Source: Eledone cirrhosa (lineage: Eukaryota). From it: a stretch of DNA of 64,000 nt. The notes under the pieces were generated by a model. It saw only the letters and a program-made list of their open reading frames with translations. It was not told the DNA's origin and ran no database searches. The position numbers and the translations under genes were made by a program. The stretch is from the NCBI GenBank assembly GCA_964016885.1, contig OZ024742.1:265174001-265238000 (forward strand), given 5' to 3'. The stretch's first letter is position 1. Each line of letters starts with the position of its first letter. Of this stretch, positions 4,229 to 64,000 are shown piece after piece.

Positions 4229-4478
4229 ATAGTTATGTAATAAACAACATAAGGCAATTATTTCATTTACCAGTGGTTCCTTAAAAGCAAATAAATTTTG
4301 CTTTCAATCATCACAATGAAAAAATCATGGTGTATTTATTGGCATTGGTTTTTAAAATCCAATGCCAATAAATACACCAGGATTTTTTCATTCTGATGAT
4401 TGAAAGCAAAATTTGTTTGCTTTTAAGAAACCACTGGTAAATGAAATAATTGCCTTATGTTGTTTATTACATAACTAT
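4229..4478. repeat. Fold-back palindrome (about 125 bp arms) carrying a hammerhead
   Basis: Arms symmetric about 4353/4354; flank 4166-4262 is homologous to the reverse complement of 45905-46000. Confidence 0.9.
4386..4446 (+). ncRNA. Type I hammerhead ribozyme, canonical core
   Basis: Stem I TTTCATT/AATGAAA; core CTGATGA 4393-4399; stem II TTGAAAGCAAA/TTTGCTTTTAA; GAAA 4427-4430; short stem III CC(ACT)GG; GUA cleavage triplet. Confidence 0.85.
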
Positions 4479-11364: not shown

Positions 11365-11795
<431 letters not shown>

Positions 11796-11799
<4 letters not shown>

Positions 11800-11931
11800 A
11801 ATAAGTAAGACCCCGACGGCTGAGCTCAAGCCGTTTCGACGGCTAATTCTGTACAGCCGGAGTACAGCCGGAGTACAGAATTAGCCGTCGAAACGGCTTG
11901 AGCTCAGCCGTCGGGGTCTTACTTACTCCTA
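11796..11931. repeat. Short fold-back element containing the 3' half of a hammerhead
   Basis: Inverted arms; GAAA-CGGCT-TGAGCTC-AGCCG-TC-GGGG at 11890-11916; family also at 5240-5390, 38890-38970, 45170-45275, 55345-55510. Confidence 0.75.
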
Positions 11932-13867: not shown

Positions 13868-14350
13868 CCTTAGTATAATCCCAATTATACGTTTGGGGTG
13901 CTAACTATACGTATTTTGCGGATAGCCAGTTGTATTATTTTATATGAGACATAATGAAATATATCTCTCTCTCCAAACGATCGTTTCATTATAAGTTTTC
14001 TACAAATTGGGAAAATAATGTCCAGGTTATGTATATATAAATGATACATTCCTACATACATAAGCCGACCCACATATACGCACACACCTACACATTCAAA
14101 CACATATGGGTGTGCGTGTGCTTGTGCATGGCTGTGTTTGTATCTATGTGTGTGTGTATGTGTGTGCGCGCATATGTTTGTATGAGTATATGTGTATAGA
14201 AGGCCCTCTTTATTTCAACACCTTCCCAACGCTATTGCATACCCAAGCCCTGGACATTTTATTCCTCTTTTCTTTGGAGAAGGAGAAACATCTGAAACGT
14301 AAGGATCTTTCCAAGAATTCACTTCATTATATCGTGTAGGTATTATATTA

Positions 14351-14535
14351 GCGGTGGATTGGCAGTATCGGTAGAGGGTCGGACGCCATGCTTTGACGCA
14401 AAGAGTTACGGCCTTTTCCATTATGAGTTCAAATCCCGCCGAGGTTAACTTTGCCTTTCATCCTTACGGGGTCGATAAAATAAAGTACCAGTAATATACT
14501 GGTTATTTGCTGACCTTGTGCCAAAAGTAGAAACA
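14351..14535 (+). mobile_element. tRNA-derived SINE (MetaSINE-like central domain)
   Basis: A-box-like TGGCAGTATCGG, B-box GAGTTCAAATCCC, central gcctttcatccttacggggtcgataaaataaagtacc, ATT-rich tail; superfamily assigned from memory. Confidence 0.85.
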
Positions 14536-14552
14536 ATTATATTAGATTTGCA

Positions 14553-14735
14553 TGGATTGGCAGTATCGGTAGAGAGTCGGACGCCATGCTTTGAAGCATA
14601 GAGTTACGTCCCTTTATGATCTGAGTTCAAATCCCGCCGAGGTTAACTTTGCCTTTCATCCTTACGGGGTCGATAAAATAAAGTACCAGTAATGTACTGG
14701 TGAATTTGCTGGCCTTGCGCCTATAAATAGAAACA
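14553..14735 (+). mobile_element. tRNA-derived SINE inserted at the tail of the preceding SINE
   Basis: Same family; 18 bp TSD attatattagatttgcat at 14536-14553 and 14736-14753. Confidence 0.85.
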
Positions 14736-14802
14736 ATTATATTAGATTTGCATTTCCAGCTTATCATAATTTAGATTACATAGAATCTACTGCACACACA
14801 CA

Positions 14803-19817: not shown

Positions 19818-20049
19818 GAGAGAGAAAGAGAGAGAGAGGGAGAGAGAGAGAGAGGGAGAGAGAGAGAGGGAGAAAGAAAGAGACATAAACCTTCAATAGC
19901 TTAGTCGATCTAATCGACACACTCGTTTTAAAAATTACTTTTTAAAACTATTTATCGGTCATAAAGAACAGATTTAAGCAGCATAAACGAAAATATAGAC
20001 ACACATATATATTTAAATTAATTTGTGAGTTTTATATTGAATAATAATA

Positions 20050-20237
20050 ATTGTTTCTACTTTAGGCACAAGGCCAGCAATTACCCAGTACATTACTGGT
20101 ACTTTATTTTATCGACCCCGTAAGGATGAAAGGCAAAGTTAATCTCGGCGGGATTTGAACTCAGACTGTAAAGGGACGTAACTATGCTAGAAAGCATGGT
20201 GTCTGACGCTCTACCGATTCTGCCAATCTACCACCCT
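20050..20237 (-). mobile_element. tRNA-derived SINE
   Basis: Same family; flanking duplication tatattgaataataataat. Confidence 0.85.
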
Positions 20238-20790: not shown

Positions 20791-20937
20791 CTCTAAAGTA
20801 TACTGATTAGCCTTATTTGCATACCGAGCGATTTTACGGCTGGCTTTGCCGAAAATTAAAACTGAAATTAGAAGTTGGTTTTTCGCTCTACCACAGTGGA
20901 TACGTAAATGTATTTGTGAGTATTATACCGAATAATA

Positions 20938-21123
20938 ATTGTTTATACTTTTGGTACTAGGCCAGCAATTACCCAGTACATTAGTGGTACTTTATTTTAT
21001 CGACCCCTTCAGGAGGAAAGGCAAAGTTAACCTCGGCGGAATTTGAACTCACTCCGTAAAGCGACGTAACTCTGTGCTGCAAAGCATGGCATCCGGCCTT
21101 CTGCTGATACTGCCAATCCACCC
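20938..21123 (-). mobile_element. tRNA-derived SINE
   Basis: Same family, reverse orientation. Confidence 0.85.
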
Positions 21124-23432: not shown

Positions 23433-23518
<86 letters not shown>

Positions 23519-23525
<7 letters not shown>

Positions 23526-23860
23526 TTAGTATCAGTGGTTTGAAATAGCGATGTATGTATAAATGAATGTATAGTATATTTAATAATATACTGTATGTTT
23601 ATTTTAAAACATTTTGAAGACCATTTGCTATGAGTTTTAAAGTAGTGGCTATGTCACTTACTTTGCCTCGGCAAAAATAAAGGGAAGCAACCGACAGCTG
23701 TTTCTCGTTTGTTAACGGTTATTAACATTGCTTATCCCCTCGCTTATGCCGAGACTTATCGAAGCTGGATTCTTATAGAATTCCAGTGATGTTTAAGAGC
23801 TGATTAAGCATAGCAATTGCCGGTCCAGCAAAAATTAGAAATTAGTATCAGTGCTCTGAA
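23519..23860 (-). mobile_element. Retrozyme-like monomer (316 bp period) with terminal direct repeat; decayed hammerhead
   Basis: ttagaaattagtatcagtg at 23519 and 23835; circular permutation of the 38965-39635 element. Confidence 0.75.
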
Positions 23861-26800
23861 AAAAATCATGGAAGACTCAGCCACACCAGGCTGACAGCCT
23901 TCCTCACAAACTAACACCTCACACCAACACCACCATTGTAAATATTACTACGTTTGCCAACACTAAAAATATAAGCAGTAGCAATAATTTAAATTTGTCT
24001 CATGCAGAAATTCATTTCCCGCCATTACCAATAACTGCAGGTGTTAAAGCCGCCACCCCCACCACAGCAACAACAGAAACAAAATAAAAAAATAAATTAT
24101 TATCTCGTGACATCGAAATGGATTCACTCAGAATCGACTCTTCCAGACCGAACACCACTGACGCCACCACCACCACCACCACAACTGAAACTAAAAATAA
24201 TAATAACAAAAATAACAATAACAACAACAGCAACAACAACAATGAGAATAACAAGAAAAACATCAACACCACCGCAAATGTGTCGTTTGCCAAAGCAGCC
24301 AAGAGATGCGAAACCATCGAGGTAACTCAGGAGGAATTAAATGAAGCCAAGAGAATGGTAAAGAAAGATGGGTACAGGGTCAGCCTCACCCCCCTCACCT
24401 AATAAAATGGACCATCGGCGCCTATGCACCGTGTCTTATCAGACGATTAACACAAAATCGCGCCGAGTGGAACGGGCATCCGAGTCCCAAAACCAAAAAA
24501 GTTTGGGACATGTGTGGGCGAAAAAACCCCACATCAGACGTGGGCAGAAATATGGAACCGTGGACGTGTTCTGGAACACCACAGGAGGCCAGAGAGCACT
24601 CCATGGCCCCATTAAGAAGCGACGACTTCACACTCGTCCCAAACTATTGTGACCAGAGACTCGTGAAGATCAAGGTGACCCACGTTCCACCGGCCATCGA
24701 AATTCCCTGGCTAATGGCTGCCGTCCTCGCCGGCATCGAGGCCAACAGCAAAATAATTGAAATATCGAAAGAAAAGCAGCTGAACTGGTCCAGATCTGGG
24801 ATGGAACTCCTGATCCAAGCGGACCAAATAAGCAGTGAGGAAATCCCAGAGGTAATAGATCTCACTGACGGCAGCCACCTCACCGTAATCGTCGAGGGTA
24901 GAAGGCCTAGGTGTGTCGTTTCTGGTGAAGGAACCCACCTAAAGACTTTCTGCCCTCAGGCTAAAAAGTTGAGGCCACCTGTCTTACCCACCCCAGTGAC
25001 TCAACCATCAACACCACCAGCAGCAGAAATGGCAGAAACAACTATAGCAGCCACAACAGAAGCAACTGTAGCAGCAACAACCCCAGCAACAGTAGCAAAA
25101 CCAACACCGCGCCAGAACTAGCACCAGCGCCTCCACCATCCACCACGCCACAACCAAAACCAACGGCTGTGGAGGATTTTCCACTCCCCGACCTATCGCA
25201 ACTAGAGACAGATTGTGACAACGAGGAGTGGGAAACTGTATCAGGAAAAAAGAAAAAAAGAAAAAGAAGCCAAAAAAGAAAAAATCCACTTCCTTCCCCC
25301 TCCAAAAACAAAATACAGAGGGAAACAAATAAACTATCAAACAAAAAAGTTAGGACAGCTATGCCACCATCCACACCAGCATCACCAACCCCATCACGAC
25401 AAACACCATCACCATCATTAACCCCAACCACACCAACACCACAAAAGTCATCAAAAAGCGAAACAGAAACAAACCCACAACAAACGCAAACAAAACAAAA
25501 CAACCAAAACGATACACACTACACAGCAGTGGGTTGGCAGTATCGGTAGAGGGTCGGACGCCATGCTTTGACACATAGAGTTACGGCCCTTGCCATTCTG
25601 AGTTCAAATCCCGCCGAGGTTAACTTTGCCTTTCATCCTTATGGGTCGATAAAATAAAGTACCAGTAATACACTGGGTAATTGCTGGCCTTGTGCTAAAA
25701 GTAGAAACAATTATATTTGAACAACAACCAATTATTACACTACATCCAACACAACACCAGCATCACAGAAAAAGACTACACAACAACCCAAAAGTTCACA
25801 CCACCTCCACACATACAAATCACTCGCATCACACAGAAAACGTACACGACACTAAAACAAAAATTCCCCAAAGAAATCGGAGACTTCCGACAAGCACTCT
25901 CCAGGAGGATTTATAAGGACATCCTTCCAGAGGAGGCCACAAGCAGTGAAAAGGATGGAGAAACCATCCTTCGTCTACGAGAAGTAAGGTAAGTGGTCTT
26001 TCCCATCTTTTACATCCTTTTCAACATGACCTCACTCAGATTAGGCAGCATAAATGCGCGTGGCTTGGGGTCGTCATGGAAGCAGGGCCACCTGCTGAAC
26101 GACCTCAGGTCACTAAACATAGATGTAGTGGCCATCAGCGAGACCAGAATGTCCGAAGCACGGGCCTTCGCACCGATCTTCGGCGGCTACGATCTGTACG
26201 CATCAACCAGCCGTCCTGGATCGGGAGGAGGAGCTGCTGTGCTTTTTCGGAGAGGTTTGGATCTCGCCATACGGGCCATCTTCCTGGACCCAGGAGGTAC
26301 CTTGGTGTTGCTTGACGTGACCAGCGGAGACAGGCAAGCTTTCAGGCTAGTGGCCGTCTATGCCCCGACAGGAGCAGGGCGGCCTGATTTCTTCCGACTG
26401 TATGGGATTAGCGGATAGGGGAGGAGGGTGCAAGAGTCTCACCAACCTGCTCAGGCGTTTTGAACTGTCTGACAGGTACCGATTGGATTTCCCGAATGTT
26501 CCAATGTGGACTTGGACAAATCGCATAGGGTCATCCAGATCATATCTAGATAGAGTATTTTGTAGGGAAATAGATAGGTCTAGCATAGGCTGTCCACAAT
26601 TCAAGATAGTCAGCTACACGGACCACAAATTCGTGATCTGTGTGCTTGACTTAGATAGGCTTCATAGATGAGGACCCGGCTACTGGAAGCTAGACGCGTC
26701 CTTACCAGCTCGCAAGGCCTACAGAGACCGGATTAGCGAACTAGTTAAGCGGGCGTTGACGGGGGCCATCGTCAACAACAAGTGGTGGTTTGCTCTGAAA

Positions 26801-29591
26801 TGAGCGATTAGAATAGAGTCCATTAGGTTTAGTAAGGCTTTAGCAATAGAGAAAAATAGAGCAGAGGGAGAACTAGTTAGAAAATTAAACGAGGCGCTTA
26901 GCAAAGGCATCGCGACCGACGTGCTTGCGGCGAAATTGGCCCTTGATCAATTCTTCAATGCAAAGCACGAGGGCTGCGTTGTCAGAGCTAGGGTGCGCGC
27001 TCTCAGACACAAGGGGACAAAAGCCGTTCAATGGGCCCGAGTGGCGGAGGCGCGTCGTGGCAACAAAGCCACGATCCGGTCTTTGGTGGACCACGACGGG
27101 CGCATGCTACTCGATCCCGGGCAAATGTGTGAAGCTTTTCAGCGACACTTCGCTCAGCTGTTCGGGGGCAGCGGTGGGCCGAGTCGAGTCATGAACTTTA
27201 GTGTCTACCTCGACGGACTGCCGCGGCTCTCGGCCACTGAGGCGGAGTGTTGCGAAAAGCCGATAACAACCGCTGAAGTACGGGAAGCAATGACTGGCTG
27301 CACAAGGGGTAAATCGCCTGATTTGGATGGTCTTCCTATGAACTTTACGTACAGATGCCAGAATTGTTCGGAGGCCTCTTGGCGGACATCTACTGCAACT
27401 GGCAACAGAACGGGAGTATTCCCAGATCTGTGAGCCGAGGAGCGGCGGCACTGCTGAGAAAGGATCCGAACAAGGGGGATAACATAGATAATTTCAGGCC
27501 CATAACTTTGCTAAACACAGAGTTCAAGATTTTGGCGAAGGTGCTAGCAAAGAGGTTGGCGCTTGTCGTTGGCAGACATGTGCCATTCCCGACAGATCCA
27601 TCCACGACAACCTCCACCTCATGCGATACATCGTAGAGAGGGAGGCTAAGGAACCTGGCACGGGTGGGTCTTTGATCAATTTAGATCAGTCGAAAGCTTT
27701 CCATAGGGTCGACCATCGTTACCTAGCGGCAGTCCTGAGGGCGGCTGGCTTTGGGCCCGTCTTCAGAGGTTGGATCGCTGCCATGCACAACGACATCTGC
27801 TCTATGGTGAGAGTTAACGGTCACCTTTCGGAACCGTTCAGCATCATGCGCTCGGTCTGCTAAGGATGTCCCCTCTCGTTCCTCTTTTACGTATTGACTC
27901 TCGAGCCATTACTTCACAAACTGGAGACGTTGAGGGGCGTCCCGCGCGAAGTAGGATGCGGAAGATCCGTGTCAGCATATGCGGACGATGTCACCTTAGT
28001 GGTGTCGAACGCCAAACACATCGAGGCGATCGGCACTACACTAAGAGAATACGAAGCGGTGACAGGAGCAATGATCAATCAGGAAAAGTCAGTGGGCCTG
28101 CAGCTCGGCACCTGGAGAGGCAGGTCCATGCCGTCCAACAGCGTCGTCAGACGCTGGACGGACGGACCGGTTAAATTGCTAGGGGTCTGGTTCGGTCCGG
28201 ACCTCCAGACGGACAAAAACTGGGACGAGGTGACGAGCAGGGTGGCTTCTCTGACACAGAAATGGGCGGAGAGGAAGCTATCCCTGAAAGGTCGAGCGGA
28301 GGTGGCTAACGCGTACATCGCGTCTGTCATCTACTACCGCCTGACCGTCGTTCCTTGTCCTAAGCCCCGCCTGACTGCGCTGGAGCGTTTGCTCTTTCGC
28401 TTTTTGTAGAAGGGACGCGCTCCGATGGTCAGGAGGTCCATCTGCTGTCAACACCCGCTACGTGAAGGGATAGGCATGCCGTGGCTGATGATGCGCAGAC
28501 ACGCGCTCAGGCTATGACATCTCCACCTCTTCCTCGACGGTGATCAGGTGTGGTCGCCGTTTGCTAGACACGTATTTCCCCAGCTCGTTTCCTTGACGGA
28601 GCTGCAGTCCTGGGTCATGCGAAGACCGAGAGGGAGCGCTTGGAGACTGGAATGTTTTCAGGCGCTCACAGCCCTCGACCAATCGGGCAATGTGATCGGT
28701 GAAAACTCCACCTCGGCGTTCTATAGAGGATCAGTGGAGGGGAAGAACGACGACGTACTTGGGGACCTCTAGGCGTCGACGAAAATCACCTAGCCAATCT
28801 CTTCGGAAGAACTTTCGGGCCGGGGCCTATGGAGAACTTCCAGAAATCTCTCGCCTGGCAGTGCTACCGAGGAGCTTTGCCTGTTCGAGATAAACTCTAC
28901 AGGCATGGAGGTGCCGTCAGTCGGGAATGTCCGAGATGCGCGCAGGGCGACGAAACCGTCCTGCACGCACTCGTCCAGTGTCCGAAAATTGCTGACTTGT
29001 GGGTTTATGTCGAACACCTACTGTCGCGTGTAGGACGGATCCGGCTATCATCTGAGTCCATCGTGAGGATTGCCCCGCCCTCTTCCTTTAGCCGGGATGG
29101 GCAGGCAGTTTTTATCTGTCTGGTGGCCATGGCGAAAGAGATAGTATGGCGGACACGTTTGAAAGGGCTGAAGACGAGCACTTACCTCTTCGGTGAAGCC
29201 CTGATTGACTTTTTCAAATTTCATTTGAAAAGGAAAATCAGAGTAGAGAGGGAAGTGCTCTCTTCGAAGCATTTTGTTGAAAGATGGGTGAGAGAAGCAA
29301 GTATGGCCCGAGTAAATGGGCCTACTCTGAGTATGTGTCTGTAAATTAAAGGTGGAACACTGGGAGAGGGCACTTGCCCTGGTGGTCAGGTTCACTGTGG
29401 CCTTTTAATGGGCTTTCTCCCCAAATGTCCCTCGGAAGTCTCACCCCTATTGGGGAATTTTTTATTGTTATTTTTATTACATCCTCTGTTTTTTACACGC
29501 AGAAATGCCCATTTGTACCGTCGTGTATTGTTTTGTACTGTCCTTAATGTCTACTTTATGTAAACCCTTGTGGTTAATAAAGAAAGCATTA

Positions 29592-29644
<53 letters not shown>

Positions 29645-29645: not shown

Positions 29646-31550
29646 GCGACCTACGTAGTAAAACGTATCATCGTGAGCTCCGCAAAGGTTTGTTATTTCC
29701 GTTTGTTAAAAATTGTCATTTATGAAAAATTTTATTGTTAACTGTTTATAAGCACACATACATTGTTTTCCGAAAAGGACACCCAAAAAGATTGGGGCCT
29801 TGTGCCCAAAATTTTAACTTTTATTATTATCAAAAAATTTCTTTGAAAAAAAATGGCTAATTCACCTCTGCACGAAGCAGCTGAAAGCCTTCCTCACAAA
29901 ATAACACCTCACACCGACACCACCATTGTAAATGTTACTACGTTTGCCAACACAAAAAAATATTAGCAGTAGCAATATTTTAAATTTGTGTCAGGCAGAC
30001 ATTCATTTCCCGCCATTACCAATGACTGCAGGTGTTAAAGCCTCCACCACCACCGCGACAACCCCCCCCCCACCACCGCGACAACAGAAACAAAAGAAGA
30101 AAAAAATAAATTAACTCGTGATGTCGAAATGAAATCAAGCAAAATGGACTCTTCCGCACCAAAGACGACTGACGTCACCACCACCACAACTGAAACTAAA
30201 ATTAATATTAACACAAATAACGATAGCAACAACAACGACATTATAAAACCAACCCTCAGTTTCGCCATAGAAGCAAAACAGTTCGAAGCATTTACGGTAA
30301 CTCAGGAGGATTTAGAAAATGCCAAACAAATGGTAAAGAAAGATGGGTACAGGGTCAGCCTCACCCCCCCCCCCACCTAATAAAATGGAGCATCCGTGCC
30401 TATGCACCGTGTCGTATAGAACAATAAATGTAAAATCGCGCCGAGTGGAACGGGCATCCGAGTCCCAAATCCAAAAGGACATGTGTGGGCAAGAAAAACC
30501 CACATCAGACGTGGGCAAAAGTATGGAACCGTGGATGTGTTCTTTGAAACACCAGAGGAGGCTAGAGAACACTTCATGGCCCCATTAAAAAGTGACGACT
30601 TCACACTCGTCCCAAGCTATTGTGGCCACAGACTCGTAAAGATCAGGGTGACCCACGTTCCACCGGCCATCGAAATTCCCTGGCTAATAGCGGCTGTCCT
30701 CGCCGGCATCGAAGCCAACACGAAAATAATAGCAATAGCAAAAGAAAAGCAGGAACACTGGTCCGGATCTGGGATGGAGCTCCTGATCCAAGCGGACCAA
30801 AAAAGCATTGAGGAGATCCCAGAGGTAATAGACCTCACTGAGGGCAGCCACCTCACGGTAATTGTCGAGGGCAGAAGACCTAGGTGTGTCGTTTGTGGTG
30901 AAGGAACCCACCTAAGGGCTTTCTGCCCTCAGGCCTAAAGGTTGAGGCCACCTCTCCTACCCACCCCAGTGACACAACCATCAACACCACCAGTAGCAGA
31001 GATGGCAGCAACAACTGTAGCAGCAACAACAGAAGCAACTATAACAGCAACAACCCCAGCAACAGTAGCAAAACCAACACCACTACCACCACCAGTAAAA
31101 CCAACACCACCACCACCCAACGCTTCAGAACTAGCACCAGCGCCTACACCATCCACCACACCACAACCAAAACTAACGGCTGTGGAGGATTTTCCACTCC
31201 CCGGCCTATCACAACTGGAGACAGATTGTGACGATGAGGAGTGGGAAACGATATCCGGAAAAAAAAAAGAAACCAAAAAAGAAAAGATTCTCTTCCTTCC
31301 CCCTCCAAAAACAAAATACAGAGGGAAACAAATAAATTAAGAAACAAAAAAGTTAGGACAGATATGCCACTATCCACACCAGCATCACCAACCCCATCAA
31401 CCCAAACACCAACACCATCACCATCATTAACCCCAACACCACCATCACCTACACCACAAAAGTCACCAAAATGCGAAACAGAAACAAACCCACAACAAAC
31501 GCAAACAAAACAAAACAACCAAAACGATACACACTACACATCATTAAATT

Positions 31551-31731
31551 TGTGGATTGGCAGTATCGGTAGAGGGTCGGACGCCATGCTTTCCAGCATA
31601 GTTACGTCCCTTTGCGATCTGAGTTCAAATCCCGCCGAGGTTGACTTTGCCTTTCATCCTTACGGGGTCGATAAAATAAAGTACCAGTAATGCACTGGAT
31701 AATTGCTGGCCTTGTGCCTAAAGTAGAAACA
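31551..31731 (+). mobile_element. tRNA-derived SINE inserted in ORF1 of LINE copy 2
   Basis: Variant with tttccagcatagttacgtcc, like the 36561 copy; TSD attaaatttg. Confidence 0.9.
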
Positions 31732-32048
31732 ATTAAATTTGAACAACAAGCAATTATTACACTACATCCAACACAACACCAGCATCACAGAAAAAGACTA
31801 CACAACAACCCCAAAATTCACACCACCTCCACACATACAAATCACTCGCATCACACAGAAAACGTACATGACACTAAAACAAAAATTCCCCAAAGACATC
31901 GGAGACTTCCGACAAGCACTCTCCAGGAGGATTTATAAGGACATCCTTCCTGAGGAGGCCACAAGCAGTGAAAAGGATAGAAAAACCGTCCTTCCCCTAC
32001 GAGAAGTAAGGTAAGTGGTCTTTCCCATCTTTTCCACTCCTTTTCAAC

Positions 32049-35000
32049 ATGACCTCACTCAGAATAGGCGGCATAAATGCGCGTGGCTTGGGGTCGTCAT
32101 GGAAGCAGGGCCACCTGCTGAACGACCTCAGGTCACTAAACATAGATGTAGTGGCTATCAGCGAGACCAGAATCTCCGAAGCACAGGCTTTCGCACCGAT
32201 CTTCGGCGGCTACGATGTGTACGCATCTCCCAGCCGTCCGGGATCGGGGGGAGGAGTTGCTGTGCTTTTTCGGAGAGGTTTGGATCTTGCCATACGGGCC
32301 ATCTTCCTGGACCCAGAAGGTAAGCTGGTGGTGCTGGACGTGACCAGCGGAGACGGGCAAGCTTTCAGGTTAGTGGGCGTCTATGCCCCGACAGGAGCAG
32401 GGCGGCCTGATTTCTTCCGTCGTCTGGAGACCTTTCTTGGAACGTCCCGCTCTTTAGTGTTAGTGGGCGACTAGAACGGGATCTTAGATGCACGCTGGGA
32501 TTGTGTGGGATTAGTGGATAGGGAAGGAGGGTGCAAGAGTCTCACCAACCTGCTCAGACGTTTTGAACTGTCTGACAGCTACCGAATGGATTTCCCGAAT
32601 GTACCAATGTGGACTTGGACAAATCGCATAGGGTCATCCAGATCATATCTAGATAGAGTATTTTGTAGGGAAATAGATAGGTCTAGCATAGGCTGTCCAC
32701 AATTCAAGATAGTCAGCTACACGGACCACAAATTCGTGATATGTGTGCTTGACTTAGATAGGCTTCATAGAGGAGGACCCGGCTACTGGAAGCTAAACGC
32801 GTCCTTACCAGCGCGCAAGGCCTACAGAGACCGGATTAGCGAACTAGTTAAGCGGGCGTTGACGGGGGCCATCGTCAACAACAAGTGGTTGTTTGCTCTG
32901 AAAAGAGCAATTAGAATAGAGTCCATTAGGTTTAGTAAGACTTTAGCAATAGAGAAAAATAGAGCAGAGGGAGAATTAGTTAGAAAATTAGATGAGGCGC
33001 TTAGCAAAGGCATCGCGATCGACGTACTTGCGGCGAAATTGGCCCTTGACCAATTCTTCAATGCAAAGCACGAAGGCTGCGTTGTCAGAGCTAGGGTGCG
33101 TGCTCTTAGACACGATGGGACGAAAGACGTTCAATGGGCCCGAGTGGCGGAGGCGCGCCGTGGCAACAAAACCACGATCGGGTCTTTGGTGGACCACGAC
33201 GGGCGCATGCTACTCGATCCCGGGCAAATGTGTGAAGCTTTTCAGCGACATTTCGCTCAACTGTTCGGGGGCAGTGGCGGGTCGGATCGAGGGATGGACT
33301 TTAGTGTCTACCTCGACGGACTGCCGCGGCTTTCGGCCACTGAGGCGGAGTGTTGCGAAAAGCCGATAACAACCGCTGAAGTACGGGATGCAATGACTAG
33401 TTGCATAAGGGGTAAATCGCTTGGTTTGGATGGTCTGCCCTATGAACTTTACGTACAAATGCCAAACTTGTTCGGAGGCCTCTTGGCGGACGTCTACTGC
33501 AACTGGCAACAGAACGGGAGAATTCCCAGCTCTGTGAGCCGAGGAGCGGTGGCGCTGCTGAGAAAGGATCCGAACAAGGGGGATAACATAGATAATTTTA
33601 GGCCCATAACTCTGCTAAACACAGAGTTCAAGATTTTGGCCAAGGTGCTAGCAAAGAGGTTGGCGCTTGTCGTTGGTGGTCTGGTGGGAGAGGCACAGAC
33701 ATGCGCCATTCCCGACAGATCCATCCACGACAACCTCCACCTCATGCGATACATCGTAGAGAGGGTAGCTAGGGAACCTGGCACGGGTGGGTCTTTGATC
33801 AATTTAGATCAGTCGAAAGCCTTCGATAGGGTCGACCATCGTTACCTAGCGGCAGTCCTGAGGGCGGCTGGCTTTGGGCCCGTCTTCAGAGGCTGAATCG
33901 CTGCCATGCACAGCGACATCTGCTCTGTAGTGAGAGTGAACGGTCACCTTTCGGAACCGTTCAACATCATGCGCTCGGTCCGCCAAGGATGTCCCCTCTC
34001 GTCCCTATTGTACGTATTGACTCTCGAGCCATTACTGCACAAACTGGAGACGTTGAGGGGGTCCCGCGCGAACTAGGATACGGAAGAACCGTGTCAGCAT
34101 ATGCCGACGATGTCACCGTAGTGGTGTCGAACTCCAAACACATCGAGGCGATCGGCACTACACTAAGAGAATACGAAGCGGTGACAGGAGCAATGATCAA
34201 CCAGGAAAAGTCAGTGTGCCTGCAGCTCGGCACCTGGAGAGGCAGGTCCATGCCGTCCAACAGCGTCGTCGGGCGCTGGACGGACGGGCCGGTTAAATTG
34301 CTAGGGGTCTGGTTCGGTCCACACCTCCAGACAGACAAAAACTGGGACGAGGTGACGAGCAGGGTGGCTTCTCTCACCCAGAAATGGGCGGAGAGGAAGC
34401 TATCCCTGAAAGGTCGAGCGGAGGTGGCGAATGCGTACATTGCATCCGTCATCTACTACCGCCTGACCGTCGTACCTTGTCCTAAGCCCCGCCTGACTGC
34501 GCTGGAGCGTTTGCTCTTTCGCTTCCTGTGGAAGAGACGCGCTCCGATGGTCAGGCGGTCCATCTGCTGTCAACACCCGCTACGTGGAGGGCTGGGAATG
34601 CCGTGGCTGATGAGGCGCAGACACGCGCTCAGGCTACGACATCTCCACCTCTTCCTCGACGGTGATCAGGTGTGGTCGCCGTTTGCTAGACACGTTTTTC
34701 CCCAGCTCGTCTCCTTGACGGAGCTGCAGTCCTGGGTCAAGCGAAGACCGAGAGGGAGCGCTTGGAGACTGGAATGTCTTCAGGCGCTCACAGCCCTCGA
34801 CCAATCGGGCAATGTGATCGGTGGAAACTCCACCTTGGCGTTCTATAGGGGATTAGTGGAGGGGAAGAGCGACGACGTACTTGGAGAAACTCTAGGCGTC
34901 GACAAAAATCAACTAGCCAATCTCTTCGGAAGGACTTTCGGGCCGGGGCCTATGGACAACTTCCAGAAATCCCTGGCCTGGCAGTGCTACCGAGGAGCTT

Positions 35001-35466
35001 TGCCAGTTCGGGATAAACTCTACAGGCATGGAGGTGCCGTCAGCCGGGCAGGTCCGAGATGCGCGTAGGACGACGAAACCGTCCTGCACGCACTCGTCCA
35101 GTGTCCGAGCATTGCTGACTTGTGGGTTTATGTTGAACACCTGCTGTCACGTGTAGGACGGATCCAGCTATCAGCTGAGTCCATCGTGAGGATTGCTCCG
35201 CCCCCTTCCTTTAGCCGGGAAGGGCAGGCAGTTTTTATCTGTCTGGTGGCCATGGCGAAAGAGATAGTATGGTGGACACGTTTGAAAGGGCTGAAGACGA
35301 GCACTTACCTCTTCGGTGATGCATTGATTAACTTTTTCAAATTTCATTTGAAAAGGAAAATCAGGGTAGAGAGGGAAATGCTCTCTTCCCTGCATTTTGT
35401 TGAAAGATGGGTGAGAGAAGCAAGTATGGCCCGAATGAATGGGCCTTCTCTGAGTATGTGTCTGTA
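32049..35466 (+). pseudogene. ORF2 (APE-RT-zinc finger) of LINE copy 2
   Basis: Colinear ORF pieces 32049-32474, 32505-33896, about 34055-35068 and 35120-35466, broken by three stops and one frameshift. Confidence 0.9.
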
Positions 35467-35710
35467 AATTAAAGGTGGAAAACTGGGAGAGGGCACTTGC
35501 CCTGGTGGTCAGGGCCACTGTGGTCTTTTAATGGGCTTTCTCCACAAATGTCCCTCGGAAGTCTCCCCCCTATTGGGGAATTTTTCTTTGTTATTTTATT
35601 TCAACCTCTGTTTTTTTTACACGCAGAAATGCCCATTTGTACCGTCCTGTATTGTCCTGTACTGTCCTTAATGTCTACTTTATGTAAACCCTTGTGGTTA
35701 ATAAAGAAAA

Positions 35711-35746
<36 letters not shown>

Positions 35747-35849
35747 CATTATTACACTCTGCTTAATACAGCACCAATATTCCTACTGGAAAATACGCAT
35801 CGAGTACTCACTTTGGTGAACCCACGGTAGCTGGATGTTACAATCCTTA

Positions 35850-36099: not shown

Positions 36100-36770
36100 A
36101 AAATCTGCAACTCCATGGCATCCAATAATGTTGACCTGTTCTTCCTTTTGCATACTTGTCACTGTTGTTTAGAGAGTGGGATTGGTTCAGTGCAAGGACA
36201 TTCTGAACTGAAAAAGTTTCAAGTACAGGCATCACTTGGTTTAAACGGCTTACACGTGCAAGCATATGCAGAAAGGAATATAAGTCCTTGACAGTAAAAA
36301 AGTCATGTCCGTGGCATCCATTTGTGAGAAAAGTGTCAAGTAATGGCAATCATCGAAAGCTATATGCAGCCATCATCTATGCAAATATGTGCACATATTC
36401 GCACATATTTGCATAGATGATGGCTGCATCTAGCTTTCGACGATTGCCATTACTTGACACTTTTTCAGTTCAGAATGTCCTTGCACTGAGCCAATCCCAC
36501 TCTCTAAACAACAGTGACAAGTATGCAAAAGGAAGAACAGGTCAACATTATTGGATGCCATGTGGATTGGCAGTATCGGTAGAGGGTCGGACGCCATGCT
36601 TTCCAGCATAGTTACGTCCCTTTGCGGTCTGAGTTCAAATCCCGCCGAGGTTGACTTTGCCTTTCATCCTTACGGGGTCGATAAAATAAAGTACCAGTAA
36701 TGCACTGGATAATTGCTGGCCTTGTGCCTAAAGTAGAAACAATTATTGGATGCCATGGAGTTGCAGATTA
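36100..36770. repeat. Fold-back of an RTE-related 3' fragment; right arm deleted internally and interrupted by a SINE
   Basis: 36100-36392 is inverted at 36401-36770; the right arm lacks about 36218-36330. Confidence 0.8.
36561..36742 (+). mobile_element. tRNA-derived SINE
   Basis: Almost identical to the 31551 copy; TSD attattggatgccatg. Confidence 0.9.
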
Positions 36771-38806: not shown

Positions 38807-38964
38807 TAGTCAGTTCTTAGATATGCCAGCTCTGTGTGTATGATGTTGATGGTATCAGAGCCTTGGGACATATATATATATATATATATAGGAAAATGTT
38901 TAACCCCGACGACAGAACTCAAGCCGTTTCGACGGCTATTTCTGGGCCGGGTCCAGAAATAGCC

Positions 38965-39635
38965 GCCGAAAATTATAGAAGCTGGATTCTTATAGAATTC
39001 CAGTAATTATCAGGAGCTGATTATACAGAGCGATTGCCGGTCCAGCAAAAATTAGGTATTAGGATTGGTGCTCTGAAATAGCGATGTATACATGAATGTT
39101 TGTATAGTATATTTGGCAATATACCGTATGTTTAATTAAAAACATTTGGAAGACCATACGCTATCAGTTTTAAAGTAGTGACTATGTTACTTACTTCTTT
39201 TCGGCGAAAGAAGGGAGAGAAGCTGACAGTCTGTTTCACGCTGGTTGGCGTTCATCAGAGCCACGTAATGTTTTTAATTAAACATACGGTATATTGCCAA
39301 ATATACTATACAAACATTCATGTATACATCGGTATTTCAGAGCACCAATCCTAATACCTAATTTTTGCTGGACCGGCAATCGCTCTGTATAATCAGCTCC
39401 TGATTATTACTGGAATTCTATAAGAATCCAGCTTCTATAATTTTCGGCGGAAGCAGGGGAGTACGTGGCTCTGATGAACGCCAACCAGCGTGAAACAGAC
39501 TGTTAGCTTCTCTCCCTTTTTCGCCGAAAATAAGTAAGTGACATAGTCACCACTTTAAAACTGATAGTCTTCTAAATGTTTTTAATTAAACATACGGTAT
39601 ATTACCAAATATACTATACAAACATTCATGTAAAC
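38965..39635. mobile_element. Retrozyme-like element: one inverted monomer plus a 1.2-mer tandem (308 bp period)
   Basis: 38965-39267 is antisense to 39268-39635; atgtttttaattaaacatacgg recurs at 39268 and 39576. Confidence 0.85.
39468..39507 (+). ncRNA. Type I hammerhead ribozyme (mirror 39222-39261, minus, with GUC site)
   Basis: GCT-CTGATGA-ACGC-caacca-GCGT-GAAA-CA(GAC)TG-T[T/C]-AGC. Confidence 0.85.
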
Positions 39636-39878
39636 ATGTGTGTGTGGGGGGTGGGGTGCATGTGTGCAAGTGTTTGTTCATGTATTTTTATATGGACGCT
39701 AAGATGAGAAGTGGTTATGAAGTTCGCTCCCACTATGTGACAACCTGAGGAAGTATCTCTTGCCATAGCAATACATCAGAGATCGTCACGGTAAAAGCTT
39801 CACTATAAGCCAGAAAACACTTGTAATACTTACACTCTACGTTTCGAAAGTATTGTGTACTAAACTGAAAACATTCCA

Positions 39879-40931: not shown

Positions 40932-42885
40932 AATTAATAAAAATAATGAATAAAAACAAAGAAACAGTTCCTTATATTAAAAAATTCATCACTTTACGAT
41001 CGTTTCTAGGATATATATGTGTGTGTGTTGGTATGTATATCATATAGATCTATGTAAAATTTTTACAAACTATCAGAGGGAATATACATAATTAATATAC
41101 ATAATTAATATACAAATTAAAGATAATATACGTAAAAAATTTTTTTACTATCCTAGAGAAAAACTTCCCGCCAAACCATAAATACCATCAACTTTTAAAT
41201 TGATCAACGGTTAAATTCTCCTACTCAACAACCAAAAATATACAACAAAATATAAGTGCCTATAATGCATATAAATGTAAAAAAAACCATGAATATACCA
41301 CCAATACATCAAACTAACCATAATACTAAAATAAACCACAGCAAACCACCATCTCTTTCACATACAACAAGTCGTGAAAATTCCACACCTAATTTCACTA
41401 TCTCCTCTGATACAGCATTCACGAAAGGTTGTAACTGTAGAAACAAAGCAAATTGCCCATTAAAAGGAAATTGCCTTATTAATAACATAGTATATAAATG
41501 TAAAATTAACACTAAGGACTCAACTTATTCATATATAGGAGCTACTTCTAACCAATTTAAAGTAAGATTTAATACCCACAAACAGTTTTAAAAATGCCGC
41601 ATTAGCTAATACAACATCCTTAGCTGAAATAATTAATAATTATAGAAAAAGGAATATAGATTATAACCTGACCTGGAGTGTGCTTATCAAAATAATAGAT
41701 ATGAATGTAGATTATGTTCCCAGGAACTTTTTGAAATAATGAAATCTAAGGATATCCTATTAAATAAGCGACAGGAATTAATTATATCATGTAATCATAA
41801 ATTGAGAAGAACTTTTAAATATTATAAACCTAATTAATATACACTTTACAAATTATTATAATAACATTTGTTTTAAATTAGTTAACCTATAATTAATATT
41901 CTACTACTAATGAACTGCATAGTTTTATTTCCCTTTTAAAGCTATCTTTTCCTAAAATTTATACCAATAAGTGTACATATAAACTATTTTAATTTCAGGT
42001 TATGAATCTATATTCCTTATAATCTGCATAAATTTGTTATTTCTCACTAATAAATCCCCCCCCCCCCCCAATAATAATAATAATTATTATTTTTTTATTT
42101 TCCCTTCGTTTTTAACAGCACTCTTCAATTACATCTAACTCTTATTTATCATATCTATATGAATTAATATAAATTTATCAATATAAATATACCTATCAAT
42201 TTAATTAATTTATTTTCTTTTTATAGATGTAAATTCCTTATATTTTAATTAAGATTGATTTTTTCACTAACACATTTATCGTAAAATTTTATTCTCCTTA
42301 GATATTTACATTAGCATTATTCTTTTATAACATCAATTGTTCGTGTACCTTTTACCGACTTAACCTATTTTCATCCCCAAAATAATCTTTTCATTCATTA
42401 TACTCTTTCCATTCAAAACTGAAATCTGCTTTCCTCTACCCCTAAATTAAAGTTCTATTACTACTATTCTACCATCTTGACCACTTACTACCTTTCTATT
42501 GGTCAATTCAAAACCTGTTCCCAAACAGACCTATTATATTAAATCTTTGTTGGTTTTTTTAAATAAACAAATATCATTATTTCAGATGTGTAGGTATGTA
42601 TATTCCCTCTGATAGTTTGTAAAATGTTTACATAGATCTATATGATATACATACCAACACACACACATATATATCCTAGAAACGATCGTAAAATGATGAA
42701 TTTTTTAATATAAGGAACTGTTTCTTTGTTTTTATTCATTATTTTTATTAATTTATCTTGACTCTGTTTTCATGTATTTTTCATCGAAAAAATTTTTTGA
42801 ATACATCTCTTTTCATGATATTCGGATTACATTGAGTTCTTCATACGGATTGGACACTACCGTACATTTTGGTAGATTTATCTAC
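40929..42885 (+). mobile_element. 5'-truncated Penelope-like element (GIY-YIG region) with an inverted copy of its 3' terminal segment at the 5' end
   Basis: FPPNHKYHQL..TVKFSYS, CNCRNKANCPLKGNCL, VYKC...YIGAT..FKVRFNTHK; 40929-41090 is the reverse complement of 42595-42756; 3' boundary approximate. Confidence 0.85.
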
Positions 42886-45118: not shown

Positions 45119-45581
45119 TTATATATATATACATTTAATGTATATATATATATATAAATATATATAACAAAGGAGGTGTGGTAAAGAACCAGATGGACAC
45201 ACCAGCGTACTCAAGGTCCAGAAATAACCGTCGAAGCGGCTTGAGCTCTGCCGTCGAGGTTTAACATTTTCCTATATATGTATAATCTTCATTGTTTATT
45301 TTTTTATTTATTTACTTGTTTGTATTTTTTTTTTTCAGATTGCTTTACAATAGAGAATTTCTTTCTTATCAACCTAGAAACATCGTTCCTTCCTTAGAAT
45401 TTAGACATCAGTAAGGGAATCTTATATGGAGAAGCATACATATATATGTACTTCCGTAAATATTATTGCCTGGTTGAATTGGTTTTGACTTTTATACACA
45501 CACACACAAAAACCCACACACATAACTATATATATTTGATTATATATATATATATATATATATATTGTTTATTACATATAT

Positions 45582-48427: not shown

Positions 48428-48804
48428 ATATATAATCTGTATATATACCCATACATACAAACACACACACATACCATATATATATATAAATACACACATA
48501 CACAAACATACGGACACGGTGTACATACATATACTAATAAATAATGGTATAAAAATGAAATGTACTTAGCTACCACTTCATAATGTATATTATCTACATA
48601 TTGTCTGTACTATCCGTTAGGGTATAATGTAGGGGTGTAATACAGGAAAATTTTATACAGTCTGTGCTTACAAGCCGAAAATGCCTCAGATTTTTTGTTT
48701 TCCTCCGGTTGTAACGTTTTCTGAAATATTTACTTCTGCGTCCACAGTTTCAGAAGATCCCGTTAACGGTGAAAGCAGCGATTTTTTGCTTAAACTTTAA
48801 TCTG

Positions 48805-57780: not shown

Positions 57781-58164
57781 TATCCAAGATAACGTTAGGG
57801 TTTTTCTATTTCATTGTGTAAGATAGACTATGTGAGTCCCGCCTGATGAGCAACTTTATTTGCTTGGCTTTCAAAATGTTTTTACTATCGTTATATATGC
57901 TTGACTGCAAACTTTATAAATTACCTGGTAGCATATTGAACATGAGAGAGAAAACCCTATTGTCACGCCTCTATGTCTTCACGCACTTCTCCATACTAAT
58001 GGCCTTCCAACCACCAGTTAAGTTAAGTATAATCAATTCCCCACATCACAGGAAAATATGTCTTTTGACGTATAAGACTTTATCATGCCAAGGAAATATT
58101 ATGCTCTATATTTTCAATTAACTATCTTTATTATTTTTTTGTCAACTGTTATTATTTTGCGATA

Positions 58165-58351
58165 CGGCGGTGGATTGGCAATGTCCGAAGAGGGTCGGAC
58201 ACCATGATTTGCATCACAGAGTTACACCTCTTTACGGTCTGAGTTCAAATCCCGCCGAGGTTAAGTTTGCCTTTTATCCTTACGGGGTCGATAAAATAAA
58301 GTACCAGTAATACATTGGGATATTGCTGGCCTTGTGCCAAAAGTAGAAACA
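58165..58351 (+). mobile_element. tRNA-derived SINE
   Basis: Same family as 14351; ttattatttt on both flanks. Confidence 0.85.
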
Positions 58352-59034
58352 ATTATTATTTTGTCAGTTGCTATGATTGTTAATTATTTTAAGTGATTAA
58401 AGAAGTAAAGTGTAATTCACTAACAACATCCAGAAACACTAAATGAACATTTTAAATTTCGTATGACTTCAAACATTACATACACCCATGCTGACAACAT
58501 TAATTATCTATACGAATTAGATAGAAATACTTATAGTAGTTTGTTATTGAGCAACTTAAAAAACGCATACAAGAAAAACAAGGAAATATACATACAACAC
58601 AATAAATGACGACGTGTTGACTTACTTGGCGACACGTTTAAATGTAGCAGATTGAACTGAATGTCTCAATTAAGGTAGACATTACTTGAAATTAAAAAAA
58701 GGATCACAGAGACAACTACTCAACTCTTCCAAAATACAAAAATTCAATAAAAAAATGTATATATGGACTCGTAATCCTGATAGAGCCTTGGGCTTTTTAA
58801 ACCTGGTAAAACTCAACTTTTGTTCAGATATGAGATGTTTACTCAACCTCGAAAGTATAAAAAGCAAAGTTCACCTCAGTAGGTTTGGAACTTAGAGAAT
58901 AGACAGCCGGAACGAATACCGTAAGTGATTCTAGCCGACTTTCTAACAATTCTGCCAATTCCCCGCCTAAATACATATATATGCTTATACACACTCACAG
59001 ATAATCAAATCCAGACACACACACACACATATAC

Positions 59035-62929: not shown

Positions 62930-64000
62930 TCTCCCCACTTTACCCCGAAGGATCCCAAACCTAATTTCGCTAACAACCCTTCTATTCGGCTAATTAACTC
63001 TTCGAAGTCTGATTTAGCTTTAGTAAAAGGATTTTAGATAGAATTATACCCGAAATTAGAAGCTTGGCCCCTCTTGCACTGTGGAATAATTCTTTCGCGG
63101 GATAGACTGGTTCAATGGCATATGCAACAAGGAACATTGCCGTTTTATCCATTTCGACATCAATAATTACTACTCCTCCATCACTTCACCACTTCTTCTT
63201 AGAGCTATCAATTTCGCTAAATCGCTCACGGTGGTTAAGGATTTCGAAGGATGTCATCCTCAATGCCCGTAAGTCGGTGATTAATTTCGACGACTCTATT
63301 TAGATTAAAAAAATCTAATAGCACTCCATTCGACGTGAGTATGGGCGCTAGCGATTCGGCGGAGGTTACAGATCTTATCGGCGTTTTCCTTCTTTTCTCT
63401 ATCAAGGAAGAATTCCCTAATATGGGTCGTTGTTTGTACCGCGATGACGGTCTTTTGACCATGACAAAGTGCGGTCCCGGCGCTTGCGAAAGGTTTAGAA
63501 AAGAACCCACAGCCTTCTGTAAAGGCTTCAACCTCACCATACAGGTTGAGGCAAACCTTTCGGTCGTAAGCTACCTCGACGTTACCCTCAAATTGTCGAA
63601 TGGCTTGCACTACCCGTATAGAATGCTGAATGATACGCTTAATTATATCAGTAAGCATTCTAACCATCCTGCCAGCATAACCAAGAACCTGGTAAGAAAC
63701 GTTTCTATCTACAAACGAGTATATTTTCACCGACCATTCCACATAATACAATGAAGCTCGATCGGAGTGGATTTGTCGATAAGGTAACATATACTAAGTA
63801 TGAGCATAAACCTAGGAAAAATAGATCCCGACGCATTATATGGTATAACCTACCCTATAATATGGCGGCGGCCACACCATTAGCTAAGATCTTTCTCTCC
63901 CTTATTAAGAAGCATTTCTCCTCAGCACATAAATATAACATTTTAAAAAATAGAAATACCATTAAAATATCTTACTCCACGACTCCTAACTTTGCACATA
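62930..64000 (+). mobile_element. Penelope-like element RT and linker region, decayed, truncated by the window end
   Basis: IRLINSSKSD, FDINNYY, MGASDSAEVTDLIG, LYRDDGL, YLDV, HSNHP, RRIIWYNLPY, NRNTIKISYS. Confidence 0.9.

Follow-up and report, generated by a model that had tools for sequence, protein, structure and literature searches.

The locus considered here lies within a 64,000-nt stretch of the Eledone cirrhosa genome (the window; contig OZ024742.1, positions 265,174,001 to 265,238,000) and consists of two back-to-back arms of one repeat, at 38963-39267 on the minus strand and at 39267-39637 on the plus strand. No open reading frame of at least 150 aa overlaps it, and each strand carries a single hammerhead core. 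The repeat belongs to a dispersed family, here called A, which has a sister family, B, in the same genome. The features of the locus, together with a second copy in the window, are as follows.

38890..38971, no strand assigned: what remains of a further small repeat, two-armed and TA-targeted, which meets the inverted arm in an 8-of-9-nt microhomology
38963..39267, minus strand: inverted arm with 305 nt of the unit, its 5' side at the head-to-head junction
38963 side, minus strand: 3' end of the inverted arm, atypical, at unit position ~264
39225..39258, minus strand: type I hammerhead core of the inverted arm, with CUGAUGA, a 4-bp stem II and 6-nt loop, GAAA, a short stem III and GUC
39267..39637, plus strand: sense arm of 1.2 units, with a truncated 5' end, the short 3' end of family A and (TG)n beyond it
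39324..39358, plus strand: copy, inside the arm, of the ~30-nt 'tail' that separates the two 3'-end sites, the short one at about 39329 and the long one at about 39356
39441..39530, plus strand: long basal stem around the sense hammerhead, its pairing kept through compensatory changes between families A and B
39471..39504, plus strand: hammerhead core of the sense arm, with CUGAUGA, a 4-bp stem II and 6-nt loop, GAAA, a short stem III and GUU
39576..39637, plus strand: terminal redundancy, which copies 39268-39329 (62 nt) at 97% with a period of 308
23518..23861, minus strand: older, diverged single-arm copy, 77-80% identity, 1.1 units, with a long 3' end in (TA)n

The initial annotation had described a circularly permuted monomer of about 310 nt with one canonical hammerhead per unit. 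The periods it gave, 308 bp for the sense part (39268 and 39576) and 316 bp for the older copy (23523 and 23839), were reproduced, as was an inverted monomer with a GUC site, which proved to be a 305-nt near-monomer (38963-39267) with its core at 39258-39225. A length of about 310 nt fits the sense lap of the window (308 nt; one 7-nt and one 1-nt gap relative to the inverted arm), whereas the usual unit measures 316 nt, with periods of 306-316 among 23 tandem dimers. Canonical hammerheads are present in both window arms, but the cut triplet of the sense copy is GUU, a common family A allele (46/157 laps), rather than GUC, and the catalytic core of the older copy has decayed. Likewise, the sense 'tandem' has the terminal redundancy ascribed to it but comprises only 1.2 units with one hammerhead. 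The differing permutation of the two window copies is apparent only and reflects a short end (39637) in one and a long end (23518) in the other, combined with different truncation points.

The hammerheads were called by direct inspection of core and stems, by conservation and by compensatory changes; at gathering thresholds, Rfam returned no match in the window. Compared with shuffled sequences, the plus unit folds with a z-score of -5.2 and the minus arm with one of -3.7, and none of 100 shuffles folded as well. In the inverted arm, cleavage is predicted between 39225 and 39224, and the 5' strand of stem I is shortened by the head-to-head junction, which leaves only 9 nt upstream of the core. 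With one hammerhead in a 1.2-unit sense arm and 9 nt upstream of the inverted core, double cleavage could not free a monomer at this locus. The arms differ at the GUC/GUU site, a discordance seen in only 4 of 31 inverted comparisons in family A, and divergence between their overlaps is uneven (2 differences over 183 nt versus 7 substitutions and 2 indels over 184 nt), which is not the even divergence expected from one circle. The locus is an old two-armed insertion, an ordinary decayed member of family A. Its junction with the small TA-targeted repeat likely explains the atypical end of the inverted arm, through a later deletion or a template switch.

Several other repeats share the window. 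The small repeat next to the inverted arm is abundant (window positions 38890-38965, 11787-11930 and 45215-45290; 65 matches in 50 loci); it also inserts as inverted pairs in (TA)n and is likely another element mobilised by Penelope-like elements (PLEs). Two tandem LINE-like copies of ~5.8 kb, 86-94% alike, with a reverse transcriptase (RT) domain and (ATT)n tails, occupy 23890-29644 and 29880-35754, with the older retrozyme copy some 30 nt away from the head of the first. By tblastn, pieces of a PLE-like family, F8, were detected at 2516-2680, 41132-41849, 48613-48699 and 63620-63999, and a dispersed SINE-like repeat of ~195 bp at 14350-14746, 20047-20226, 20935-21121, 36562-36746 and 58164-58361. 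In addition, 34 hammerhead-like motifs unrelated to A or B fall into several groups (near 4392 in the window, and at loci L061, L070, L147, L263, L052, L358 and others); some of them have canonical stems and may mark further retrozyme families.

Ends, lengths and variants in families A and B

Family A is spread throughout the 3.0-Gb genome, where exact matches to a 26-mer number at least 1,697; a pattern for the 34-nt core matches 172 times, and the cleavage motif occurs as a tandem pair 23 times. Its 316-nt unit has a GC content of 0.36-0.39, successive laps read through seamlessly into one another, and the core positions are conserved in ~140-157 laps. The first 100 matches of the 26-mer anchor on C1 yielded 150 distinct arms; the exact anchor is present in 96, and unit positions in these were counted from the predicted cut. 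The 3' ends of these 96 arms cluster at positions 136-142 (48 arms) and 164-175 (31 arms), with nine at 121-135 and eight elsewhere. The free permutation of units proposed initially, which was to be judged by mapping ends onto the unit, therefore does not hold for the 3' side, where 79/96 arms stop at two fixed sites; only the 5' ends vary, and they do so by truncation. At the 3' flank, (TA)3 occurs in 63/96 arms, compared with 379 of 4,400 random positions. A head-to-head partner accompanies 51/96 arms and a tail-to-tail partner just one. Among 73 head-to-head pairs from all A loci retrieved, 36 combine a long with a short end, six are short with short and none long with long, while 31 include an atypical end.

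The 5' ends show no trace of the cleavage site. In 63 of the 96 arms the sequence crosses the predicted cut, 32 arms stop short of it and a single one ends within 5 nt of it; 27 arms exceed one unit, the longest reaching ~2.6 units. Indels are not in excess at the cut (1/207 and 0/207 at the two flanking positions). The suggestion that copies arise by reverse transcription of circular or multimeric RNA is supported by this read-through. The GUC/GUU allele is concordant between laps in 22 of 23 genomic dimers (p=3e-6). Divergence amounts to 6.2% between laps within an arm, 5.9% between the two arms of an insertion and 8.7% between loci, indicating that family A is old; as a test for mixed multimers, the within-arm and between-arm values (6.2% versus 5.9%) do not discriminate. 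The rate at which arms stop rises after one lap, from about 0.16 to 0.35 per 40 nt. Three alignment columns that had appeared diagnostic were dropped as artefacts of a 3-nt insertion in the scaffold.

Two pairs of A loci deserve separate mention. At L086:1807-2563 and L118:1481-1956, related insertions with a hairpin and a CTAG end split the unit at nearly the same AT-rich position; in these features they resemble non-autonomous Helitrons. The copies at L063 and L072 have their 5' junction in common, along with 205 nt of flank that match at 99%, which reflects either a segmental duplication or a transduction. Both A and B units are also present in contigs from three sequencing runs, of unrecorded kind, of one sample.

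Family B was encountered in the flanks of A copies. It is 68% identical to A and collinear with it over the whole unit (210/307 aligned positions). Of 20 predicted pairs in the basal stem and stem II, eight are changed on both sides between the families (16 sequences), and stem I is, by inspection, kept. The idea that this relative might be an old, decayed subfamily was rejected, the sequences being young; family B is probably still active (examples at L252:1068-5336 and L264:1066-6490). Exact patterns located it genome-wide, giving 9,448 core matches, many in runs with an exact period of 310 bp, the length of its unit, and 654 short-type ends in TA. The sample studied in depth comprised 109 stretches of C1, of which 14 were the first core matches and 95 had been picked for a short end; they hold 113 insertions with 199 arms.

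The pairing of ends is stricter here than in family A. Of the 86 two-armed insertions, three are cut by the edge of the stretch; among the other 83, 80 combine a long and a short end (at about 160-172 and about 139, respectively) and three have an atypical end, with neither short-short nor long-long pairs. In the 14 stretches unselected by end type, the pairing holds in 11 of 11 cases. The 3' flanks are TA in 188/196 cases, and the scan of the 109 stretches revealed one clear target duplication, of ~14 bp (L261), others being obscured by (TA)n. Arms have a median length of 2.4 units and a maximum of at least 19.9, their laps being near-identical, so that arms with up to ~20 identical laps lend further support to copying from circular or multimeric RNA. 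The fraction of arms stopping per lap stays at 0.20-0.31 over laps 0-8 and is 0.44 at lap 9 (7/16), and of 178 5' ends only 3 lie 5 nt or less from the cut, where 6.9 would be expected. Across subfamilies, median arm length declines from 3.3 through 2.1 to 1.1 units from young to old (3.3 versus 1.1, p=7e-7), either since arrays collapse with age or since older variants were copied less far; a collapse with age, if it occurs, would explain the 1.2-unit arm in the window.

Variants private to single insertions bear on the number of templates. Among 75 young B insertions with threefold cover, 14 hold private variants in every lap, and 13 of the 15 such variants are found on both arms. A set of 65 longer young insertions resolves into 28 haplotypes, and variants present in only some laps accounted for just 12 of the 200 calls made on the first 54 stretches. 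The all-lap variants are enriched in A>G changes (8/23 versus 5/90 among single-lap variants, p=6e-4; a post hoc comparison with one site of unclear polarity omitted), and at unit positions 20 and 276 such changes recur on several haplotype backgrounds, in six insertions each; single-lap changes lean towards T>C (17 versus 5). RNA editing or template recombination could possibly account for the recurrence at the two positions. Judged from these sequence patterns, it is conceivable, though doubtful, that RNA circles undergo A-to-I editing before they are copied, fixing the edits in the genome; another reading of the enrichment is tolerance of G-U pairs in the stems.

Penelope-like elements and the relation to known retrozymes

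A link between family B and a coding element is provided by locus L309 (904-1870), where a short-ended B arm stands head-to-head, with 6 nt between, to a 5'-truncated copy of a PLE family, F10. The F10 arm ends in TA at its long end, and the PLE does not continue beyond the far side of the B arm. This chimera is one among 113 B insertions and the single such case among 27 unpaired B arms. F10, for which a first look gave 35,373 candidates, has 150 scored copies at 96% amino-acid identity or more, several of them with frames of 1,226-1,240 aa, and its median nucleotide identity of 99.7% among 18 copies marks it as very young. Its ends follow the pattern of the retrozymes: of the 32 ends seen, 17 are short and 15 long, the two sites being separated by ~57 nt, and the five matched head-to-head pairs each join a short to a long end. 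The tail thus delimited (~57 nt) is longer than that of the retrozymes (~26-30 nt). In F10, A and B alike, the short end immediately precedes a CG, in the context AT-CG...TTTCA, a resemblance that we treat as a lead only. On this evidence, there is an even chance that F10 drives family B. In family A, one of 95 unpaired arms stands head-to-head with the PLE-like family F8, and the piece of F8 tested had no Pfam match.

The unit itself was not found as part of a coding PLE. Among 50 GIY-YIG loci (30 + 20) compared with A, none used the unit as a terminal repeat, and homology to A was limited to insertions lying nearby at L150 and L221 and a weak fragment at L154. Comparison of A 5' flanks brought up host repeats only; neither the 95 A nor the 27 B 5' flanks had a shared coding extension upstream, and no frame with RT and GIY-YIG domains between pseudo-LTRs (pLTRs) was found for the unit in the flanks and loci tested. 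PLE fragments occur in 18/171 A stretches, at a density like that of the window and, by inspection, outside the terminal-repeat position. Thus, in the samples examined, the unit does not always form the terminus of a coding Penelope.

Judged by its sequence, the element is a member of the animal non-LTR retrozymes, a known class. Like the elements described from coral, mussel and axolotl (Cervera and de la Pena 2020; PMC7229834), it has a non-coding tandem unit in the range of 150-450 bp with a GC content below 45%, a single canonical hammerhead of type I, with a short helix III, in each unit, and a self-paired predicted fold, and it shares its genome with PLEs. No LTR arrangement was seen in the retrozyme insertions. 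Tandem hammerheads are present in the family (23 A dimers and many B arrays), and the window locus has one core per strand. Unlike those elements, the one described here is known from its sequence, with cleavage and circles as predictions. It also differs in that its insertions resolve into back-to-back arms whose 3' ends sit at two fixed sites in (TA)n: the part of PMC7229834 that names PLEs, and only as candidates, gives no such end pattern. A plant LTR retrozyme, with type III hammerheads in two LTRs and a 4-bp duplication, is ruled out by the type I topology, the tandem units and the TA targets.

The manner of insertion is that of the Neptune and Nematis PLEs, which carry a C-terminal endonuclease and share with the retrozymes the 5' truncation, the inverted 5' copy and the targeting of (TA)n (PMC8557442; PMC11167929), a one-ended tail (30-40 bp in PLEs, ~26-30 nt here; PMC8557442) and two internal RT start sites downstream of the hammerhead (PMC11167929). 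In contrast to these PLEs as described, the retrozyme has no ORF, reads through itself for up to ~20 laps, carries a canonical rather than a minimal hammerhead and shows no homology to the PLE terminal repeats tested (50 loci). Chlamys PLEs such as MRC1 are likewise non-autonomous and insert as multicopy head-to-tail arrays, but they share 3' sequence with an autonomous partner, and most of the clade is described as lacking canonical hammerheads (PMC8557442). Li, Clavereau and Pollet (2026; bioRxiv 10.64898/2026.07.22.740005) also regard retrozymes as PLE-dependent, non-autonomous derivatives; the basis they present is co-occurrence and pLTR similarity, and they discuss arrays as products of local amplification after insertion, whereas our case rests on insertion anatomy and favours arrays made at insertion. 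In the literature searched, which left aside most subscription journals and the repeat databases, we found no description of this family or of a long/short end rule for retrozymes.

A rolling-circle model and its alternatives

In the accounts available, both the enzyme that spreads animal retrozymes and the use of the circle as a template are left open (PMC7229834, PMC7761336, bioRxiv 10.64898/2026.07.22.740005). Animal retrozymes are reported to yield abundant RNA circles (PMC7229834), and a purified PLE from anole nicks and extends both target strands, the limits of the tail being set by two internal start sites on the RNA (PMC11167929). Recognised features of PLE insertions include the tail, inversion and a TA bias (PMC8557442), and the two fixed internal 3' ends, the one-sided tail, the inverted 5' copies and the TA targets found here are marks of the same process (PMC8557442). 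We therefore regard the element as very probably a retrozyme mobilised by a PLE. By analogy with the anole enzyme, the short and long 3'-end sites that flank the tail would correspond to two start sites of reverse transcription (PMC11167929).

Our preferred reading, to which we assign a probability of roughly 0.7 on the sequence evidence, is that a PLE-type enzyme primes both target strands and rolls round one circular RNA, and that the window locus is such a retrozyme insertion. A genomic multimer would be transcribed and cut into monomers by its hammerheads, and a host ligase would close the monomers into circles, as has been shown for other retrozymes. The PLE RT-endonuclease would then nick both strands of a (TA)n target, and DNA synthesis would begin for each strand at a site of its own, the two sites within the circle being separated by ~30 nt. 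Each strand would roll round the circle until it stops at random, and the two products would join at their 5'-truncated ends, giving rise to back-to-back arms. In this scheme, we infer cleavage, circle and enzyme; a circular template, in particular, is predicted with good but not overwhelming confidence. The insertions themselves display two fixed 3' ends, the pairing of long with short, TA targets, random 5' ends, read-through of the cut, identical laps and variants common to both arms. Most of the mechanistic evidence comes from sister family B and less from family A. The identical laps, the constant stop rate, the unmarked cut and the private variants on both arms fit one circular monomer read by both primed strands. 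More specifically, F10 and family B may form a currently active pair, in which an enzyme dimer would prime both strands at two set sites on a single circle and copy up to 20 laps, although we put this forward as a tentative proposal with the odds slightly against it.

The main competitor retains the same element and a PLE enzyme but takes as the template a linear multimer, transcribed from a genomic array and left uncleaved, a reading that we consider unlikely. Stem III is weak and near-palindromic, and such hammerheads are slow as monomers (PMC4209133); moreover, uncleaved RNA was the main template of the anole PLE in vitro (PMC11167929), and both the rising stop rate of family A and the uneven divergence of the window arms fit finite templates made of unlike units. 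On the other hand, up to ~20 intact ribozymes would have to stay uncut, even though tandem copies favour dimeric cleavage, and the all-lap private variants of 14 insertions, along with 28 haplotypes among 65 insertions, would call for frequent single-unit bottlenecks. The rarity of some-lap variants (12/200) and the constant per-lap stop rate of family B also speak against a linear template.

A circle would be superfluous if the RT copied cleaved linear monomers and rebuilt concatemers by jumping from end to end. Such jumping is known for the R2 RT, which offers a precedent, and it likewise predicts identical laps and a monomer bottleneck. However, it also predicts stops, and gained or lost bases, at the cut, where just 1/96 (A) and 3/178 (B) 5' ends lie and indels are not in excess, so that this very improbable route is largely refuted. 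Slightly less credit still is due to a birth of satellites, in which short insertions were later expanded into arrays by DNA slippage or unequal exchange. A few arrays with variants confined to a block of laps (L283, 3 or 4 of 21) do fit local duplication, but the youngest B arms are the longest (median 3.3 versus 1.1 units, p=7e-7), those of the old family A do not exceed ~2.6 units, and private variants span both inverted arms. Least probable of all is that the unit represents the pLTR of an undiscovered coding Penelope seen as 5'-truncated fragments: the insertion hallmarks are all PLE-like, frog retrozymes share homology with pLTRs (bioRxiv 10.64898/2026.07.22.740005) and only some of the many PLE families in the genome were sampled, but a lap is preceded by a further lap, by an inverted arm or by unrelated sequence (no common extension in 95 A and 27 B flanks), the PLE fragments near 18/171 A stretches are, by inspection, not in terminal-repeat position, and the hammerhead is canonical rather than of the minimal PLE type.

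The value of these observations lies in the pattern of the family rather than in the window locus itself. The anatomy of the insertions points to PLE enzymes and a circular template in the spread of animal retrozymes, and it suggests a simple rule of PLE integration, in which one strand takes the short start and the other the long one. This rule would explain both the one-sided 'tail' and the inverted 5' copies that have long been noted. As the genome harbours both a retrozyme family and an intact PLE of young age, the rolling-circle model is directly testable in vitro. If borne out, the pair formed by F10 and family B would constitute direct genomic evidence of rolling-circle target-primed reverse transcription.
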